DNA from: a virus
DNA length: 64,000 nucleotides
Strand: one strand, 5' to 3'
Virus record (IMG/VR): IMGVR_UViG_3300035670_000085
Coordinates: 1 to 64,000 of that record
A model generated the notes under the pieces. The model ran no database searches. It had not been told where the DNA came from and worked only from the letters and a program-made list of their open reading frames with translations. The translations under genes were made by a program, and so were the position numbers. Shown here one piece after another: positions 3,391-54,673 of the stretch; the first letter of the stretch is position 1, and each line of letters starts with the position of its first letter.

Positions 3391-4860
3391 ATGTCAAATG
3401 AACAAATGGATAGTTTTGATCCTTTTCAAATGGCGAAAGTTGAAAAGGAAGCAATGAGAGAAGCACGAGAAAATAAAAACAATTATGGGGGTAGAACTTA
3501 CGAAGAGTATGAATATCTAGGACTTAATCCAGATGAGAAGAAAGTATTTCGGATCGTTAGTAATCCTGTTAAATTGAATGGAGAATCATTAACTGAAAAA
3601 GATGCAAGATTGGTTATGACTTCACGTATTTTAACAGATGAAGGAAAGGGATTTTGTAACATTAACTGGCAATGGAAAATTAAAAATGGTAAATTTGTAG
3701 CAGATCCTGATTGGTTTTTGACTCGTGTTATGAATACTGTATTTGGTGGTACATGGCAACCACTTACAGAAAAAGATGTTGATGGAATTAAGATTGTTAA
3801 ATCAGCAGACGGAAAGATTTTTAACTCTCAATCAAAATTTAAATCTACGAATAAATTTGTAGTAAATAATCCGAATACACCATCGTATAAACGTCTTAAA
3901 AATAATAAAAGACCTAATGATACTTTTGCTGTTGATGTAATGCCATCACCACATGTTATGCTTCAAGTTATTGATAGACTTGATGATTGGTGTAAAGTAA
4001 ATAAAACTTATAAAATTCTTGCTACTAAAGCTAATGTTGTAGAATACCCAAATCCAGACGGAACAATTAAAAAAGTTGTTTATAAGGATACTGGAATTTC
4101 TTTTTCAATGTATGAGAAAATTCTTGACCACTTCTTGAATTTTAGAAAAGATTGGTATATTGATTGTGTTATTAAAAGGTATAAATCAACATCAGGTTGG
4201 ACATTTGAAATTCAAGATGCTCAAGATTTTAAAAAACTGTCTCCAGAAATTCAAAAAGTTATTTCTGAAGAACCTCTGACGGAAGAAGAAAAATCTTATA
4301 AATTTAATGATCTCTCTAAACTTGACCAAATTTCTACTTATAGTAAAATTAAAAAGAATCTTGAGAAATTGATTCGTCAAGTTGACATTGATTATAATAC
4401 TAACTTTCTTGCAGAATTAGAACAACTTTGTGAAGCGGAAAAAGCAAAGTTTAAAGAAATGTATGGAAATGAGAATGTTGATAATGAAGTTGAGTCAGAA
4501 GTAGAAATTGAAAAAGTTGAGGAAGTTAAACCAACTGTTACTGTAAAAGAAGAGGTAAAAGTTGAAGAAAAGATTGAAGTACCAGTAAGAACATCAAGAG
4601 AAGTTCAAGTGCCTGTAGAAACTAATTTGGAAGCAGAACTTATTAAATATTTTCCAAATTGGTCTAAACTTGATGAAACTGATGTGAAAGTTATGTTGAC
4701 GGATGTAGAAAAAATTGTTCCGGAAAAAGGAATTGTTTACAAATCAGGAGTTGTCACTATTCCTTGTGATAATAAAGATTGTGTATTTCCTGGAACAACA
4801 ATAAGAGCAGCTTTTCCAGATAAAGTCTATAACTGCCCGTCTTGTGGTAAGAAATTCTAA
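3391..4860 (+). CDS. ssDNA-binding protein-like (gp32-type) with acidic linker and C-terminal Zn ribbon
   Basis: First gene of the replication operon; KVFRIV and VMLQVIDR segments; E/V-rich linker; C-x4-C...CPSCG. ATG 3391 follows GAGG RBS (the track starts at GTG 3358). Confidence 0.5.
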   Translation: MSNEQMDSFDPFQMAKVEKEAMREARENKNNYGGRTYEEYEYLGLNPDEKKVFRIVSNPVKLNGESLTEKDARLVMTSRILTDEGKGFCNINWQWKIKNGKFVADPDWFLTRVMNTVFGGTWQPLTEKDVDGIKIVKSADGKIFNSQSKFKSTNKFVVNNPNTPSYKRLKNNKRPNDTFAVDVMPSPHVMLQVIDRLDDWCKVNKTYKILATKANVVEYPNPDGTIKKVVYKDTGISFSMYEKILDHFLNFRKDWYIDCVIKRYKSTSGWTFEIQDAQDFKKLSPEIQKVISEEPLTEEEKSYKFNDLSKLDQISTYSKIKKNLEKLIRQVDIDYNTNFLAELEQLCEAEKAKFKEMYGNENVDNEVESEVEIEKVEEVKPTVTVKEEVKVEEKIEVPVRTSREVQVPVETNLEAELIKYFPNWSKLDETDVKVMLTDVEKIVPEKGIVYKSGVVTIPCDNKDCVFPGTTIRAAFPDKVYNCPSCGKKF

Positions 4861-19379: not shown

Positions 19380-19426
19380 AATTATACTAATAAATATAGT
19401 CTAAATAAAATAATAGGTGTTTCAAA

Positions 19427-27447: not shown

Positions 27448-28425
27448 ATGTATGGATTAATTTATAAAGTAACAAATATTCAAAATAGAAAAGTTTACAT
27501 AGGACAAACTACTCGTTCTTTAGAAAAAAGAAAAAAAGAACATATTAAAGATGCAATAAACGAAAAATATGTAATACCTTTTCATAATGCTCTTAGAAAA
27601 TATGGTGCATATAATTTTAAATGGGAAATTCTTGGATATTGTAAAACAATAGAAGAATTAAATGATTCAGAAGAATCTTGTATTAATTTTTATCAAAGTG
27701 TAAATAAAATTTACGGATATAACGTGAAATTTGGTGGAAATAATTATACTTTATCTCAAGAAACAAAAGATAAAATAGGAAAAGCAAATAAAGGTAAATC
27801 AACGTGGACTAAAGGCCGAAAATTATCAGAAGAACATAGAAAAAATATTGGGTTAGGGAATTCAAATCCCACAGAAGAAACAAGACAAAAACACCGTAAT
27901 GCAAATTTAGGAAAACACCATCCCCAAAAAACTAAACAAAAACTTCGTGAAGCAAATTTAGGAAAAAAACAATCCGAAGAAACAATTAAAAAACGTAGTG
28001 AATCTTTAAAAAAACAAACTCCAGAAATGAAAGAAAAAAGAAGACGAAGCCTAACTGGAAAAAAACGTACTAATGAAGTTCGCCAAGCTATAAGTACCAG
28101 AATGAGGGGTGTAAAAAAATCTGAAGAACATAAACAACATATGAGAGAAGCAAATATCAAATATTTTATTAGTTCTGAAGATATGCAAAAAATATTAAAT
28201 AAAATTTTTATTGAAGGAATTACTATAAAAGATGTAGCAAAAGAATATAAAATTTCTTATAGCCCTTTGTATAAAAGGATTCAAGAGGTTATAAAAGATC
28301 AATCAGAAAAATATCCTTCTCTTAATAAAAAAACAGAAAAAACAAAAGAAAAAATAAGACAATCTGTTATTAATCACAATCAATTAAAAAAATTAAATCA
28401 AGCAATAATTGAATATATTTTTTAA
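27448..28425 (+). mobile_element. GIY-YIG homing endonuclease with NUMOD3 repeats
   Basis: GLIYKVTN..NRKVYIGQT, GYN, repeated GKK.SEE motifs. Confidence 0.9.
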
Positions 28426-37548: not shown

Positions 37549-37713
37549 ATATGATAGTTTTTCTTATATTGCTTTTAATACTTCAAATATATTTAATTTA
37601 TGCTGGTATTAAAAATAAAGATTATATATTTATTCTTATAAATATGGCTTCTGCTATATATAATATATTTATAATGTATCAATATTTTTTGTAAGTGGTT
37701 ACATACTAATAAA

Positions 37714-37894
37714 TAGAAATGCCAAAAAACTTATGATTTAATAATTAATTCACAAGTAATCGCATTTCTAAATAGTATACCCTCTATGCCTCCGTTTAAA
37801 TTTGTTAAACATGCACAATTTAGGGGGTCTTTGGGATCTGGTAACAGGATGACCCGTGAAGCGTAAGACTGCGCAATCTTACGCTTCTTTTTTT
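37714..37894 (+). ncRNA. candidate late-transcribed structured ncRNA
   Basis: TACTAATA at 37704, several hairpins, strong terminator, no RBS-led ORF. Confidence 0.45.
37858..37894 (+). terminator. rho-independent terminator
   Basis: GAAGCGTAAGA / TCTTACGCTTC stem followed by a T-run. Confidence 0.85.
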
Positions 37895-37933
37895 ATTTTT
37901 TATACTAATAAATATATAGAATAGTTTTATAAT

Positions 37934-48657: not shown

Positions 48658-50724
48658 ATGGCTAAAATAAAATTAGTTGAAAAGATAGGAATTAATGTTC
48701 CTATTGAAAATATAAAAGTTTTTGATAAAGTAAAGATAGTAGAAGCTGCCGGAAAGAATTACGAGGCTATAGCAGTAATTGAGAAAGTACCTTTTACTAG
48801 ATTTGGCAGTGTTAATGATAACAATAGATATTATCCACGTAAACTTTGGGAAAAAGTTATAAAAGAAGGAGTATGTGAAGGAAGCTCTCTTTATACAAAC
48901 CATGCAGAAAATGAAACAGATGTATCTAAAAAAGCAGGTATCTGGCATAATGCATTTATTGACGATAAGAATAAAGTATGCAGAGCAGATCTTTATCTTA
49001 TAGGACCAAACGGACAACTCTTTCTCGATGCTTTAAAAGCTGGTTCAAAAGGGGAGGGTATCAGTTCAGTTGGCTACGGTGAGTTTGAAGATAGATACGA
49101 AGAATTAAAAGAATTTGGTAATATAGGACATGATGTAAAAGTAGTACGATGGGACACGTATGATGGAGAGTCTTATGGCGACTGGGTACATCAGCCGTCT
49201 CAAAACGTATTTGCAACATTAGAAAATATTAAAGAAAATAATGAAAACTCTTCTAATTTAAATGAAAGTTATACTAATAATAGTAAAGCTACTAATGATA
49301 AATTAGATGAAAATATAAAATTACAAGAGAATAAAAAAGAGGTTTATATGGATAAGTCGATATTGAAGAATATGGTATTGAATGAAATAAAACGTTCAAA
49401 AAATAATCCTAATCTTCTTGAAGCAATTCAAGGATTGAAAGAGATTGACACTGCTGGTGATTCTGAACTTAATAATAGAGTAAATGATGCAATTGAAACT
49501 CTCACAACTAAACTTGAAGAAAGTAAAAGTAATGCAGAAAAACAGCTCAATGAAAGCACAACTAAATTGAATGAAATGACTGCTAAATATAATAAACTTG
49601 TTGAGAATTATAAAAAAGCTACTTCTAAAGTTGTAGAATTGACAGAATCAACAAAACTTATGGAATCCGATATTAAATGCTTGGTAGAAGATTCTAATCT
49701 CCGTGATAATGATATTAAATGTCTTACAGAAGACCGTAAAGTTATGATATCCGATCTTAAAAAAATGATTGAAGATCGTAAAGCAATGAGAAAAGATATT
49801 AATGTTCTTACTACTAAATTGAAAGAAGCTGAAGAAGTTATTGGTCAACAAGAAGATGAACTTGAAAAACGTGGATTTGAATTTGAAGAAGATGATGAAG
49901 AAGTAGAATTTGATGCGGAAGGAAATCCTATAGTAAAAGAGCCTGTAACAGAAGAAGAAATGCCTGCACCTGAAGTGCTTCCAGAAACCCCGGCAGAAAT
50001 AAAAGAAGAAGGTGACGAACAAGAACTTCCTATGCAAATCGATCCTCTTCCAACTGAACCTGCAATGGTTGAAGAAGAAGATGAAATGATGAATCTTGAT
50101 TTTGAAGATGAAGAAGAAGTTGAAGAACTTGAAGAAGAAGATGCTTTTGATGCATTTGCTCCTGCAGGTGAAGAAATGGATGAGCCTATGGTAGAAGAAG
50201 ATGAGATGGAAATGCCTGTTGAGGAAATGCCAGTTGAAGAAGCTCCGGCAGAAGAAGTGAAAGAAGAAGAAATGCCTGCACCTGAAACTCTTGACACTCC
50301 TCCTGCACCGGCTCCTGCTCCTATAGCCATAGAAGAACCTAAACCAGAAGAAACTAAAATGGTTGAGGAAGACGAAGAAGAAAAAGAAGATGAAGAAGAA
50401 GTTGAAGAACCAGAAGAAGAAAAAGAAGAAATGAAAGAATCTGTAATTAAGTTTTCATGGGAACCAAAAAAAGAAGTTAAAAAAGCTCCTGTAAAAACTA
50501 AAATCGTAGAAAATAATATTAAGGCTGATCTTAAAAAATTCTATGAAAGTCAGATTGCAAAGAATCCTTCTGTAAAAGCTATTGAAAAACAAATCATGTC
50601 TGCTAAATCTTTGTTAGAGGCCTTTGATATGGTTGATGTATTCAAGAGCAGAAAGTCAGATAAACTTGTGAAAGTTACTGAAAGTAAAAAATCTGATGGT
50701 AATGTGATAAAATTTAAATTCTAA
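48658..50724 (+). CDS. prohead protease (T4 gp21-like) fused to coiled-coil/acidic scaffold
   Basis: N.N.RYYP, TNH, GP.G, GISSVGYG, DWVHQPS; then coiled coil with many L-x-E sites and an E/P-rich tail. Confidence 0.8.
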   Translation: MAKIKLVEKIGINVPIENIKVFDKVKIVEAAGKNYEAIAVIEKVPFTRFGSVNDNNRYYPRKLWEKVIKEGVCEGSSLYTNHAENETDVSKKAGIWHNAFIDDKNKVCRADLYLIGPNGQLFLDALKAGSKGEGISSVGYGEFEDRYEELKEFGNIGHDVKVVRWDTYDGESYGDWVHQPSQNVFATLENIKENNENSSNLNESYTNNSKATNDKLDENIKLQENKKEVYMDKSILKNMVLNEIKRSKNNPNLLEAIQGLKEIDTAGDSELNNRVNDAIETLTTKLEESKSNAEKQLNESTTKLNEMTAKYNKLVENYKKATSKVVELTESTKLMESDIKCLVEDSNLRDNDIKCLTEDRKVMISDLKKMIEDRKAMRKDINVLTTKLKEAEEVIGQQEDELEKRGFEFEEDDEEVEFDAEGNPIVKEPVTEEEMPAPEVLPETPAEIKEEGDEQELPMQIDPLPTEPAMVEEEDEMMNLDFEDEEEVEELEEEDAFDAFAPAGEEMDEPMVEEDEMEMPVEEMPVEEAPAEEVKEEEMPAPETLDTPPAPAPAPIAIEEPKPEETKMVEEDEEEKEDEEEVEEPEEEKEEMKESVIKFSWEPKKEVKKAPVKTKIVENNIKADLKKFYESQIAKNPSVKAIEKQIMSAKSLLEAFDMVDVFKSRKSDKLVKVTESKKSDGNVIKFKF
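49348..50724 (+). CDS. nested in-frame scaffold protein (internal start MDKSILK)
   Basis: TACTAATA at 49272; AAGAGG RBS before in-frame ATG 49348 (Met231). Confidence 0.6.
   Translation: MDKSILKNMVLNEIKRSKNNPNLLEAIQGLKEIDTAGDSELNNRVNDAIETLTTKLEESKSNAEKQLNESTTKLNEMTAKYNKLVENYKKATSKVVELTESTKLMESDIKCLVEDSNLRDNDIKCLTEDRKVMISDLKKMIEDRKAMRKDINVLTTKLKEAEEVIGQQEDELEKRGFEFEEDDEEVEFDAEGNPIVKEPVTEEEMPAPEVLPETPAEIKEEGDEQELPMQIDPLPTEPAMVEEEDEMMNLDFEDEEEVEELEEEDAFDAFAPAGEEMDEPMVEEDEMEMPVEEMPVEEAPAEEVKEEEMPAPETLDTPPAPAPAPIAIEEPKPEETKMVEEDEEEKEDEEEVEEPEEEKEEMKESVIKFSWEPKKEVKKAPVKTKIVENNIKADLKKFYESQIAKNPSVKAIEKQIMSAKSLLEAFDMVDVFKSRKSDKLVKVTESKKSDGNVIKFKF
49951..50286 (+). repeat. 24-nt direct repeat encoding EEEMPAPE in the acidic scaffold tail
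   Basis: GAAGAAGAAATGCCTGCACCTGAA at 49951 and 50263. Confidence 0.7.
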
Positions 50725-50735
50725 TAAAAAATAAA

Positions 50736-50770
50736 CTCAAAGGAGGAATTCAAACTCCTTTGAGATTTCT
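50736..50770 (+). terminator. hairpin/terminator after the scaffold gene
   Basis: CTCAAAGGAG / CTCCTTTGAG. Confidence 0.65.
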
Positions 50771-50785
50771 TTAAAGATAATAAAA

Positions 50786-51001
50786 ATGAAACGATATAAA
50801 TCATTATTCAAAGAAGAATTTCCTCTTAATTACAAACAAGGAATGTTTCTTAAAAACATTATAGAGGAATATCTTATAGATATTGGAAAAGAAGAAAAAA
50901 GAAAAGAAGCGTTTACTATAATTTTACATGCAATATCTAACCATAAACTTGATTTTGATAAAGATAAAATTTTATTGTTTTTACAGAAAAAATATAATTA
51001 A
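50786..51001 (+). CDS. tagged putative internal head protein between scaffold and capsid genes
   Basis: MKRYKSLFKE. Confidence 0.7.
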   Translation: MKRYKSLFKEEFPLNYKQGMFLKNIIEEYLIDIGKEEKRKEAFTIILHAISNHKLDFDKDKILLFLQKKYN

Positions 51002-51024
51002 AAAATTCATTTTTAAATAATTTA

Positions 51025-51206
51025 TACTAATAAATATAAGTTGAAGATATTCTATCAAAAGATAGTTTGTATAAAAAAGACGATTCAAAAGAATCAAATG
51101 CAATAGTAGTTCTCAAAAGAGATCATTAATAGTGCCTTTCAGAAGAAAGATGTTTCGATGTTCAATTAAAATTTAAAATTAAGAAAATAATTTCAAAAGA
51201 GGAAAT
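51025..51206 (+). promoter_or_regulatory. late promoter and 5' UTR of capsid gene with five TC-A[AG]AA-GA hairpins
   Basis: TACTAATA at 51025; hairpins at 51052, 51082, 51111, 51136 and 51191. Confidence 0.7.
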
Positions 51207-52715
51207 ATGAGTAATCAAATGAAACTCCAAGAGGAGTTAAAAGAGCGTAACGAACGCTTGAATAAAATAACTGAAAACTGGATGAGGACTGAATTTACAA
51301 AAGGCGATGTAATTCCTAAAACTGGAAAAACTTATCGTTCCATGCTTCAAGAAGTTGCAGCAAGGAATCCTCATCATGCAAGATGTATCGCTGCTGCAGC
51401 TCAGCAAGAATACAACCACATGAAAAAAAGTAAAATGAATGAAACTACGATTTCTACTGCTCTTCAAACGCACCCGGAAAACGTAATAAAAGTAATCATG
51501 CTTGGTATGGCTAATTCAATTCGTCCTATGGCATTCGTAGAATGGCCAATGACAACTATTGATGATGCTATGTATTGGGTAGATCGTACATATGAACAAT
51601 CAATTCGTGGCGCAACTGCTAACGATCTGATTTATTACAGCTTGAATGGAAGGTATGCTGGGGAATCTAAAGAAGAAACAGATGCAACTGTAACTTCATG
51701 TCTCCCGAACGTACCGAATAGCGCAACTCAAAACTTTACGTTGACCCTTACTCTCAATCCTATTATCATGAAAAAAACGTATATTACGTTGAATGATACT
51801 CTGATTGGTTATGACAGTCTTGGAACTGGTGTTATTACCCGTCCAGGGAATTCAACTGTATTGACAACCAATACAACTAATAATAATATCGATTATACGA
51901 ATGGTATTGTAAAACTTGGTTTTACTTCTGCTCCCGCAACTGGTGCTGTTATAAAAATAGCATATGAGTGGGATTCTGAAAATACAACTCTGTTTGCTGC
52001 AAATCAAGGAACAGTAAGTGTTAATCTTCGGAAAGATCGTTTTAATGCTCGTCCAATGCCGTTAGGATACAAATTCACGGATATGGCTGGCCTTACTCTT
52101 ATGTCAACTGGTCTTGGTGACATTCATGAAATGCTTATTTCTGCAGTAGCAGATGAGCATGCAAAAGCTCGGGATGCTCGTGCAATTCAGCTCGCATACC
52201 AACTCGCAAAAGTTAATGGTACTTATACATTTGATTGCGATTTCCGTGTAGCTGGTGAAGTTCAAGCGAAATCACACGTCCAGAAAGTTGTAGCAAAAAT
52301 AGATTCTATCGGTGGTTTGATTCAGGACGATATTAAAAAAGGTCAGATCAACGTAGCTATCGCTGGTTCACAAGCACTTTCTATTCTCCGGATGCATGAC
52401 AACTGGAAAGATGATAATTCAATGCCTCGTCAAGGATGCTATAAAGCAGGTTCTGTAAACGGTATTGATGTATTCTATGCACCTGCAACTACCGGAATTA
52501 TTGGAACAGAAGACATTATTCTTTCCTATAAAAACCCGCAAGAAAATGCAGACGTTGCTCTTGCTTTCGGTAACTTTACTGAAATCAGTGCAGAATTACG
52601 TTATCCAAATTTTACAACTGAAGGATCGTTGGCAACTGTTGAAGACGTGAAAATAATTGAGCCTAAGTTTCTCCGTCATCTTCAGCTTTCAAATACTTCG
52701 GCTGTTCTTTCCTAG
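51207..52715 (+). CDS. major capsid protein (distant T4 gp23-like) with insertion domain
   Basis: Follows protease/scaffold; WPM motif, AGS.NG..V(F/Y), ILSYK; strongly biased codon usage; strong terminator. Confidence 0.8.
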   Translation: MSNQMKLQEELKERNERLNKITENWMRTEFTKGDVIPKTGKTYRSMLQEVAARNPHHARCIAAAAQQEYNHMKKSKMNETTISTALQTHPENVIKVIMLGMANSIRPMAFVEWPMTTIDDAMYWVDRTYEQSIRGATANDLIYYSLNGRYAGESKEETDATVTSCLPNVPNSATQNFTLTLTLNPIIMKKTYITLNDTLIGYDSLGTGVITRPGNSTVLTTNTTNNNIDYTNGIVKLGFTSAPATGAVIKIAYEWDSENTTLFAANQGTVSVNLRKDRFNARPMPLGYKFTDMAGLTLMSTGLGDIHEMLISAVADEHAKARDARAIQLAYQLAKVNGTYTFDCDFRVAGEVQAKSHVQKVVAKIDSIGGLIQDDIKKGQINVAIAGSQALSILRMHDNWKDDNSMPRQGCYKAGSVNGIDVFYAPATTGIIGTEDIILSYKNPQENADVALAFGNFTEISAELRYPNFTTEGSLATVEDVKIIEPKFLRHLQLSNTSAVLS

Positions 52716-52745: not shown

Positions 52746-52774
52746 GAGACCGGTAGAAATGCCGGTCTCTTTTT
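52746..52774 (+). terminator. rho-independent terminator
   Basis: GAGACCGG / CCGGTCTC stem followed by a T-run. Confidence 0.85.
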
Positions 52775-52804: not shown

Positions 52805-54610
52805 TTATGGTTTGTATTCAAAAACATAATTACCACAATCCCAAATTCTATCCCAACCATTTTGTTGCATATTTTCCCACTCTGTTAACTCTTGATTATA
52901 AAATTCTAGTAGATTTTTGAGTTTATGTTTTTGAAATTTAATACGAGAATATAAATTTATATAATCTTGCGTATAGAAATAATTAGGAGAGGATTCATTT
53001 ATAAGAATGAAATTATTTTTAAGATATACGTTTCCAATACTAAATCGTTTATCTGCATATGATATAAGTGATGTAGAATAGTTTTGAGTAAAATATTTTA
53101 AGCATTTAGAAAATCCACCAATAACAGATATATTTAATTGAGAAGAAAATCGAATTAATTCATATTTATGTTTTTGTTTCTTATCAAATCTTGGTTTAGA
53201 AAATGAACAAACTTGAACTAGTTCATTATTAAAAAATAATCCAATATTTATACTTGCAATAATTCCTCCTTGTATGTGAGTTCTATTTAAAAATTCAATT
53301 GTAGTTGCATTATCTATTTCTTTTATAATACATTTCCTTGCATATATTTTGTTTTCAGATATTCCTATTTTAGTAAGGATTATCGATTTTACAATATCTT
53401 TTTTTTCTATCCATTCTTTATCCCATATATGAATAACTTGAATATTTTTTTCTTTAAAGAAATTAGTTTTAATTAAGTGATAATTTTGTCTTTTATTGCC
53501 CGCAATTTCACTATGATAATATATGCCATTTAATTCAATACCAATATTTTTTTCTGGTATATAAATATCAAGTTCATGATGATGCTTTCCTTTATAATAA
53601 AATCTTTTATTTGGTACTATAGAAATATTTAATTGTTTTAACCAATCTTTAATTTCATTTTCGATTTTAGAGGTATGATATTTAGGAGAAAAGCAATGCG
53701 TACAGCGTGGAATTTTTCCATCTCTTAATACAAAAGAAAATTCTTGATTACAAGTAAGACATAAAAATTTATAAGATTTTAAATTACCTTTATATTCTTC
53801 AATAGTAAAAAGAGGTTTAACATGTGTAAGATTTAAAATTACTCTTTGATAATATTTAGTATAATGTGTATGTTTACTTTTTTCAATAACTTCTGGATTT
53901 TGAGAAGGAAAATCAACTCCACGTTTTAATTGATTTGTTTCTTTCATTTTAGTTTCATTATATGCATTAACAGAACCATGAAGTTTCATATTAGTATCTT
54001 GTCTTTTTCTAATAATTTCTTTCCATTCATCTTCTGATTTATTTAATAATCCTTCACTTATTGCCTTACCATTACTCCCCATTCCATATTTGTCATTACA
54101 TGTTTCAATTCTTTTCTCAGAATTGTTATAATTTTCATCCCCATATCGTTCTTTTTTTATTTCCTTGTTCTTTATAGTAGCCCTCTCGTAAGCATTCAAT
54201 CCATTTTCATCAACAGAATTTATTTTATTATTGTGTTTCTTTTGAGAAATTTCTAAAAGCTCCGATTCATTTTTTGATTTCCAAGTTTCTGCTGCTTTAT
54301 CATATCCTGGATTTCCTCTGTCTTTTCGGGTTGCATGACTTTTTTTATTACGAGCTTTAATCATAGTATCATAATCTGAATCATAATTTTCTCGTTTTCT
54401 TTTTTCTTTACATTTACCATTTTTACAATAATGATTTTTTAGAAAACAACTCACAGATTTTATGATAAGAGTATTACACGGCGTGTGGATATATTCTATT
54501 TGTTTTGTGTTTAAATGGATAAGTTTATATTCATCAGTCAGTTCTAATTTTTCAATTAAAATTAAAGCTTTTTCAATTTTAAATGCAGTATGTTTTGCTA
54601 ATTCTTTCAT
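52805..54610 (-). mobile_element. free-standing homing endonuclease (Hef-like; KYG repeats, Zn finger, Vsr-like nuclease, C-terminal YARKC...IWDCG domain)
   Basis: ELDIYIPEKNIGIELNGIYYHS, IHIWD.EW, ELIRFSS, ISYADKR; start reassigned downstream of the promoter at 54617-54646. Confidence 0.8.
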
Positions 54611-54673
54611 ATATATAATATACAAAATATCTAGAAAAAATTAACAACTTTTTTCAGAAATTTATAAAAAATA

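Follow-up and report, generated by a model that had tools for sequence, protein, structure and literature searches.

Iron-responsive elements (IREs) control mRNA stability or translation, with five copies in the 3' UTR of the transferrin-receptor mRNA and one in the 5' UTR of the ferritin mRNA. The boxB hairpin of phage lambda has a GNRA-like pentaloop with G as its first residue; a nut site contains one boxB, together with boxA, and allows terminators further downstream in a multi-gene operon to be read through. The amount of capsid protein that a tailed phage makes is generally attributed to the strength of its late promoter and the quality of the ribosome-binding site, and we know of no dedicated multi-site RNA element on the capsid mRNA of T4-like phages. 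The operator of the T4 DNA polymerase, gp43, is a short hairpin in the mRNA leader with a conserved tetraloop that ends in A residues and is read by a protein (PMC3014915). No multi-site RNA element on the capsid mRNA is described in the same review of post-transcriptional control in T4 (PMC3014915).

Here we describe an array of four hairpins in the leader of the major capsid protein gene of an uncultured T4-like phage, known from a contig. The hairpins carry one design of loop and closing pairs on stems that differ from copy to copy, and the array is real, selected and lineage-restricted. A search of literature full text returned no described capsid-leader hairpin array.

Genomic setting of the capsid gene

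The stretch of DNA that we analysed (the window) covers the initial 64 kb of a viral contig of 99,896 bp from IMG/VR (IMGVR_UViG_3300035670_000085), which has a G+C content of 28% and a completeness of 62% as estimated by CheckV. Searches of phage GenBank records yielded no DNA match and a single distant protein match, and no relative of the capsid protein was found in GTDB genomes. The major capsid protein gene (51207..52715, + strand) encodes a Gp23-like protein of 502 aa, which matches Pfam family PF07068 with an E-value of 1.3e-5, above the family cut-off. The protein has 49 homologues in a large protein collection, many of them with PF07068, including three clusters at 79-92% identity.

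A terminator-like hairpin with a 10-bp stem, a 9-nt loop and a T-rich tail, read from the sequence at 50736..50764 (+ strand), lies 3' of a 688-aa head gene and forms the boundary between that gene and the capsid unit. At the other end, the capsid unit is closed by a strong bidirectional intrinsic terminator (52746..52769) identified by terminator prediction. Beyond it, a gene of ~600 aa (606 aa; 52805-54625, - strand) that matches homing/HNH endonuclease families converges on the capsid gene. As the capsid gene is flanked by terminator hairpins and has a convergent gene downstream, it is a single-gene unit.

Several features of this neighbourhood can be compared with L018, a locus from a close relative. 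An ORF of similar size (597 aa) in L018 (3648-5441, - strand) has the same position and orientation as the convergent ~600-aa gene. A second mobile-type endonuclease (GIY-YIG + NUMOD3) is located at 27448-28425 of the window. The 688-aa gene (48658-50724) that immediately precedes the capsid unit had no match in Pfam or PHROG searches. Towards its C-terminus, the L018 counterpart contains an extended acidic region rich in Glu and Lys, a composition that fits a scaffold-like role but has no profile match behind it. A 71-aa ORF (50786-51001 of the window) lies between the terminator of the 688-aa gene and the capsid promoter and is missing from L018, in which the promoter directly follows the terminator with no ORF between them (1782-1870). 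Judging from the two loci, either one lineage gained this ORF or the other lost it.

Four hairpins in the capsid leader

The four hairpins are all on the + strand. Hairpin 1 (CTATC-AAAA-GATAG, 51052..51065) and hairpin 2 (GATTC-AAAA-GAATC, 51082..51095) each have a 5-bp stem and an AAAA loop, and fold alone with energies of -3.5 and -4.2 kcal/mol, respectively. Hairpin 3 (TCTC-AAAA-GAGA, 51111-51122) has a 4-bp stem and an AAAA loop, folds alone at -3.5 kcal/mol, and can be extended to 51109-51124 by an outer G-C pair across a U.U mismatch. Hairpin 4 (CTTTC-AGAA-GAAAG, 51136..51149) has a 5-bp stem and an AGAA loop and folds alone at -3.7 kcal/mol. Stems are thus 4-5 bp long, the inner U-A and C-G pairs are invariant in all four hairpins, and the cores are spaced 30, 28 and 26 nt from start to start. 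These positions, stems and loops are the ones given for the first four hairpins in a preliminary description of this DNA, which our analysis confirms.

All four hairpins are present in both the MFE and the centroid folds of the leader, in the window and in L018 alike, and the individual hairpins of the two phages have energies of -2.4 to -4.2 kcal/mol. Compared with shuffles, the fold of the whole leader has a z-score of only -1.5 in the window; the L018 leader folds better than 200 of 200 shuffles (z -3.2). A search of the array with TRF detected no tandem repeat, which indicates that the linkers between the hairpins are unrelated to each other.

The array is unique in the contig. The 8-nt core occurs 39 times on the two strands of the 99,896-bp sequence, and the five intergenic copies are all in the capsid leader. 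The other 34 copies are within ORFs and their flanks pair at chance level, with at least two flanking pairs in only 4 of the 34. We also scanned both strands for clusters of hairpins with a 3-6-nt loop and a stem of at least 4 bp, grouped by loop and two closing pairs. The capsid leader is the only place in the contig with a cluster of at least three same-core hairpins within 150 nt, and none of 20 first-order Markov genomes reached a cluster of three (none above two). Chance does not account for hairpins 1-4. A single perfect copy of the hairpin elsewhere, at 27664 within the GIY-YIG homing endonuclease gene, was judged to be a chance occurrence, as were the remaining stray copies, which are in ORFs without a family match.

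Database searches returned no similar element. With Rfam 15, the best scores in 50700-51300 were 15-19.5 bits, against cut-offs of 42-92, and no hit overlapped the array. A three-core pattern matched just coding sequence or simple tandem repeats with identical units in IMG/VR, hairpin 2 plus a core matched coding sequences only, and the promoter plus two cores had no match. In GTDB genomes, a pattern of promoter plus cores gave four chance matches, none with hairpins.

A late promoter motif upstream of the array

Upstream of the hairpins is a motif of the TATACTAATAAATAT type (51023..51040, + strand; the 15-nt TATACTAATAAATAT itself at 51023-51037), the core of which is repeated upstream of late genes. 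The contig has 17 exact matches to the 11-nt core, ACTAATAAATA; every one is on the + strand, and nearly every one is just upstream of a gene. Copies in the window are at 19386, 23629, 29243, 33252, 37705, 37904, 41248, 44561 and 51026, and the remaining ones are in the contig region 72082-98646. Since the genes behind the motif include those for the tail sheath, a tail-spike-like virion protein, the large terminase and the capsid protein, we interpret it as a late promoter. We take its role to be comparable to that of the T4 late TATAAATA box. Related forms of the motif precede the capsid gene in many distant relatives, so that promoters of the TATACTAATAAATAT type are found across the clade and differ from the T4 late box.

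Some genes start only 23 nt past the beginning of the motif, so transcription probably starts at or just past the motif end. The predicted start of the capsid transcript is therefore at ~51041-51045, 8-10 nt before hairpin 1. No second promoter motif was found between the hairpins and the capsid start codon. The promoter motif is identical in L018, and the gap between it and hairpin 1 is 11 nt in both phages. The preliminary description had assigned the hairpins to the capsid 5' UTR. As far as the sequence tells, this assignment holds, as the likely late promoter lies upstream of them and the start predicted from the motif falls upstream, not downstream, of the array.

The capsid leader is long. 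About 165 nt separate the promoter motif from the capsid start codon, and the distance from motif start to start codon is 181 nt, versus 23-86 nt in the other promoter-gene pairs (setting aside the gene-less unit at 37705). In many distant relatives, related motifs are located 150-270 nt upstream of the capsid gene, so that a long leader on this gene characterises the clade. The gene-less unit (37705-37894) consists of a late promoter motif, ~180 nt without an ORF and a G+C-rich terminator hairpin, and the gene after it is served by a separate promoter at 37904. We consider this unit a candidate late non-coding RNA.

Compensatory change in a relative

Relatives were gathered by pattern scans, which gave 17 viral loci and 19 metagenome loci. 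Approximately 23 variants of the capsid protein are at least 79% identical to it, and among the loci L018 (capsid 80% identical) is the only close relative with an upstream region, so that the evidence for conservation comes from two genomes. Another locus, L019, starts inside the capsid gene and so does not include the leader.

L018 has four hairpins in the same order as the window: AATATC-AAAA-GATATT, GATTC-AAAA-GAATC, GTTTC-AAAA-GAAAC and ATTTTC-AAAA-GAAAAT. Hairpin 2 is identical in the two phages. In hairpin 1 of L018, the outermost C:G pair is replaced by A:U and one extra pair is added. In hairpin 3, one C:G pair has become U:A and the U.U mismatch has become G:C. Hairpin 4 has an AAAA loop, a change of the outermost pair from C:G to U:A, and one extra pair. 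When the hairpins are anchored on their cores, 4 of the 12 outer pairs have changed on both sides (three from one Watson-Crick pair to another and one from U.U to G:C) and none on one side. The stems are thus maintained by compensatory change. Only one of the 32 core positions differs between the phages (a loop G to A), and the linkers are ~60% identical.

An alignment of all eight hairpins has 97.5% of its cells paired, with nine double-sided changes and no one-sided change. Its covariation score is 0.657, versus 0.141 in shuffles, of which none out of 500 scored as high; the signal is lost when the partners are slid. Conservation and covariation in the capsid leader of a relative, which had been named as a check on the preliminary description, were therefore found. 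Core spacing in L018 is 27, 28 and 29 nt, compared to 30, 28 and 26 nt in the window, which argues against a rigid register of units.

The array is missing from the capsid leaders of distant relatives (35-48% capsid identity), and no analogous arrays of repeated motifs were found in them. In L023 (43% capsid identity), a single 6-bp hairpin with the same core and an AGAA loop is present at 3910-3925, 89 nt upstream of the capsid match. From how often such hairpins occur in 252 kb of related loci, we estimate that ~0.09 would be expected by chance across the leaders. The L023 hairpin is thus only suggestive; it might represent an earlier stage of the element, with one copy. A separate subclade (L005 3775-3973, L010 2144-2356, L011 3263-3482, L017 3752-3952 and L027 1219-1416) has a capsid leader of ~200 nt that contains several strongly conserved sequence blocks; no consensus structure was supported for it. 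Long conserved capsid leaders seem to be general in this group of phages, with a content that appears to be lineage-specific.

The spacer and the ribosome-binding site

An AU-rich, unstructured spacer (51150..51189, + strand) connects the array to the ribosome-binding region (51190..51206, + strand), which contains the 8-nt core once and the Shine-Dalgarno sequence GAGG at 51199-51202. The segment 51150-51215, which includes the spacer, is less structured than its shuffles (z +1.45; +0.65 in L018). From hairpin 4 to the ATG, including the conserved ribosome-binding site, the window and L018 are ~78% identical. An 8-codon uORF directly after hairpin 4 (51150-51176) is probably not meaningful, as its start codon is absent in L018.

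The preliminary description had counted a fifth hairpin, at 51191-51202, that would cover the ribosome-binding site. In that form the element does not fold (0 kcal/mol), and its loop is shorter by one A in L018, so we rejected it as a member of the set. An alternative 5-bp stem (51190-94 with 51202-06) that places the Shine-Dalgarno sequence in a 7-nt loop is marginal at -1.2 kcal/mol, and 43 of 200 shuffles are as good. Other late genes of the phage also have an A-rich sequence before GAGG, and we therefore take the fifth element to be a normal ribosome-binding site.

Hairpin 4 ends ~45 nt upstream of the Shine-Dalgarno sequence and the stretch between them is less structured than shuffles, which makes simple blocking of the ribosome-binding site unlikely. 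We give direct occlusion a low probability, one in five at the very most in our estimate of this route. With the array ending so far upstream and the spacer open, control through 5'-end-dependent decay or through ribosome loading would fit better.

Function of the array

The pattern of conservation is that expected of RNA hairpin operators in general, with an invariant loop and closing pairs on stems that are kept only in their pairing. It is very probable that these are selected RNA hairpins, and we lean slightly towards a trans-acting factor that reads them. A fixed loop and fixed closing pairs on varying stems, four times on one mRNA, favour a multivalent operator. We put the probability that the array is a multivalent RNA operator for a sequence-specific trans-acting factor, acting on the capsid mRNA alone, at roughly 50%. 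An operator of this kind had been proposed in the preliminary description; the location in the leader, the compensatory conservation and the RNA-like pattern speak for it, and the part that involved a fifth hairpin over the ribosome-binding site does not stand.

In the mechanism that we infer, which comprises action as RNA, binding of a factor and the direction of its effect, the four hairpins would fold in the RNA, within the 5' leader of a late capsid mRNA that carries one gene. All would present the same kind of A-rich tetraloop, closed by the same C-G and U-A pairs, on top of a freely varying outer stem. Together they would offer several docking sites to a trans-acting factor that recognises both sequence and shape and that is probably a protein, from the phage or from its host. 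The bound factor would set the output of capsid protein, either by changing the lifetime of the mRNA from its 5' end or by changing the access of ribosomes to the unstructured initiation region downstream.

We looked for candidate factors in the contig, which covers ~62% of the genome. There was no match in it to RegA (PF01818) or to the CsrA family (PF02599), although a CsrA protein could also come from the rest of the genome or from the host. Pfam lists for 113 ORFs included no recognisable RNA-binding domain among the families listed (in one list, 25 of 47). The ORFs with stray copies of the hairpin offered no lead to a binder, one being the GIY-YIG homing endonuclease and the rest having no family match.

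The lack of a binding protein in these domain searches of the contig is in line with a purely cis-acting role, in which the hairpins would need no factor and would protect the 5' end of a very abundant mRNA from 5'-end-dependent decay or insulate the AU-rich initiation region from misfolding. In both phages the predicted 5' end is ~8-10 nt from the start of hairpin 1, there is unusually little structure in the initiation region downstream, and a high output is generally needed from capsid mRNAs, all of which suit such a role. However, the individual stems are weak (-2.4 to -4.2 kcal/mol), and a cis-acting role would leave unexplained why there are four copies of one design and why 31 of 32 core positions are fixed despite drifting outer stems and linkers. 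We regard this explanation as unlikely.

Every pair in the hairpins is Watson-Crick and none is G.U, so pairing by itself cannot tell RNA from DNA, or one strand from the other. Each site is also a perfect DNA palindrome, and the array could be a double-stranded DNA element, that is, four palindromic operators just past the late promoter at which a dimeric DNA-binding protein would block or modulate transcription. The sites are within ~110 bp of the promoter, and HTH and sigma-70 region-4 domains are present in at least one ORF of the contig. A dimer, however, should conserve the sequence of the half-site and not its complementarity, as in a DNA operator or iteron array, and in this array each half-site keeps just 2 bp unchanged, with covariation at the outer positions. 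The best conserved part is the asymmetric 4-bp centre, which is the reverse of a normal operator, and the core spacings of 26-30 bp are out of step with the helical repeat. In addition, all eight centres share one orientation relative to the gene, with the A-rich loop on the mRNA-sense strand in eight of eight hairpins. Fixed loops and closing pairs on freely varying outer stems match an element recognised as RNA more closely than an operator in DNA, and we consider the DNA reading improbable.

Identical exposed loops on variable stems would also be suited to pairing with another RNA, either by kissing with a small RNA of the phage or host or by recruiting ribosomes through rRNA. The gene-less late-promoter unit at 37705-37894 could supply such a partner, but its RNA has no stretch complementary to the loop. 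Kissing by four A residues would be very weak, and a window-wide scan for the loop complement was uninformative as to a partner RNA. This explanation seems a little less probable still. Least probable is a relic without present function, such as quasi-palindromes kept perfect by template-switch repair: the comparison spans two genomes only and template switching can produce paired changes without selection, but one design with an invariant core occurs four times in the same place in two phages with ~40% diverged linkers, and no such cluster exists elsewhere in the contig or in shuffles.

If the array is a multivalent operator and a factor does bind it, the hairpins and the factor would be a new RNA-protein recognition pair and would mark a new control point in head assembly. 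The hairpin would then also be a compact, orthogonal tag for RNA tethering tools. A more speculative and rather doubtful extension is a new post-transcriptional circuit reserved for the major capsid protein of a T4-like phage lineage, in which a novel RNA-binding protein reads the four hairpins and adjusts the synthesis of capsid protein to the progress of assembly; this protein could be a head-assembly component that reports unassembled scaffold or capsid subunits. As the motif is small and well defined, the idea is directly testable with synthetic leaders.

Comparison with known systems

Type III toxin-antitoxin systems have ToxI-like RNAs made of tandem direct repeats of ~36 nt beside an endoribonuclease toxin gene. 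The capsid array has no tandem repeat detected by TRF, its linkers are unrelated and the gene downstream encodes the capsid protein, and we therefore rule out a ToxI-like antitoxin RNA. The sites of the T4 RegA regulon are AU-rich, linear and located at the start codon, whereas the array consists of hairpins 58-155 nt upstream of it. Leaders controlled by CsrA/RsmA resemble the capsid leader in having several short hairpin sites along the 5' leader, the last of them near the Shine-Dalgarno sequence. However, CsrA sites need GGA in the loop, which none of the eight loops has, and the only GGA in the capsid leader is within the Shine-Dalgarno sequence.

The boxB hairpin bound by lambda N is similar in its 5-bp stem, its purine-rich A/G loop, its location in a phage transcript leader and an A-to-G difference between copies. 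Unlike boxB, the capsid hairpins have AAAA or AGAA tetraloops that are closed by C-G and lack the leading G, and no boxA-like sequence was seen in the capsid leader. Terminator prediction gave no + strand terminator-like site within the leader, and a lambda-type read-through role would have nothing to bypass in a single-gene unit with a strong terminator, past which the next gene is convergent.

The closest phage precedent is the gp43 operator of T4, which is likewise a hairpin in the leader of a T4-type phage, tens of nucleotides upstream of the start codon (PMC3014915). That operator consists of a single hairpin plus a stretch overlapping the ribosome-binding site, belongs to an early replication gene and is bound by the product of that gene. 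The capsid array, by contrast, has four copies with a different loop on a late capsid gene, and has no conserved element at the ribosome-binding site, and domain searches of the contig gave no candidate binder for it.

In architecture, the IREs are the closest match. They are eukaryotic and have another loop and a bulged C, so the resemblance is a functional analogy with no evolutionary link. In both cases, one mRNA carries several hairpins that share a loop and closing geometry on different stems, which in IREs are independent sites for one protein and in the capsid leader may be the same.
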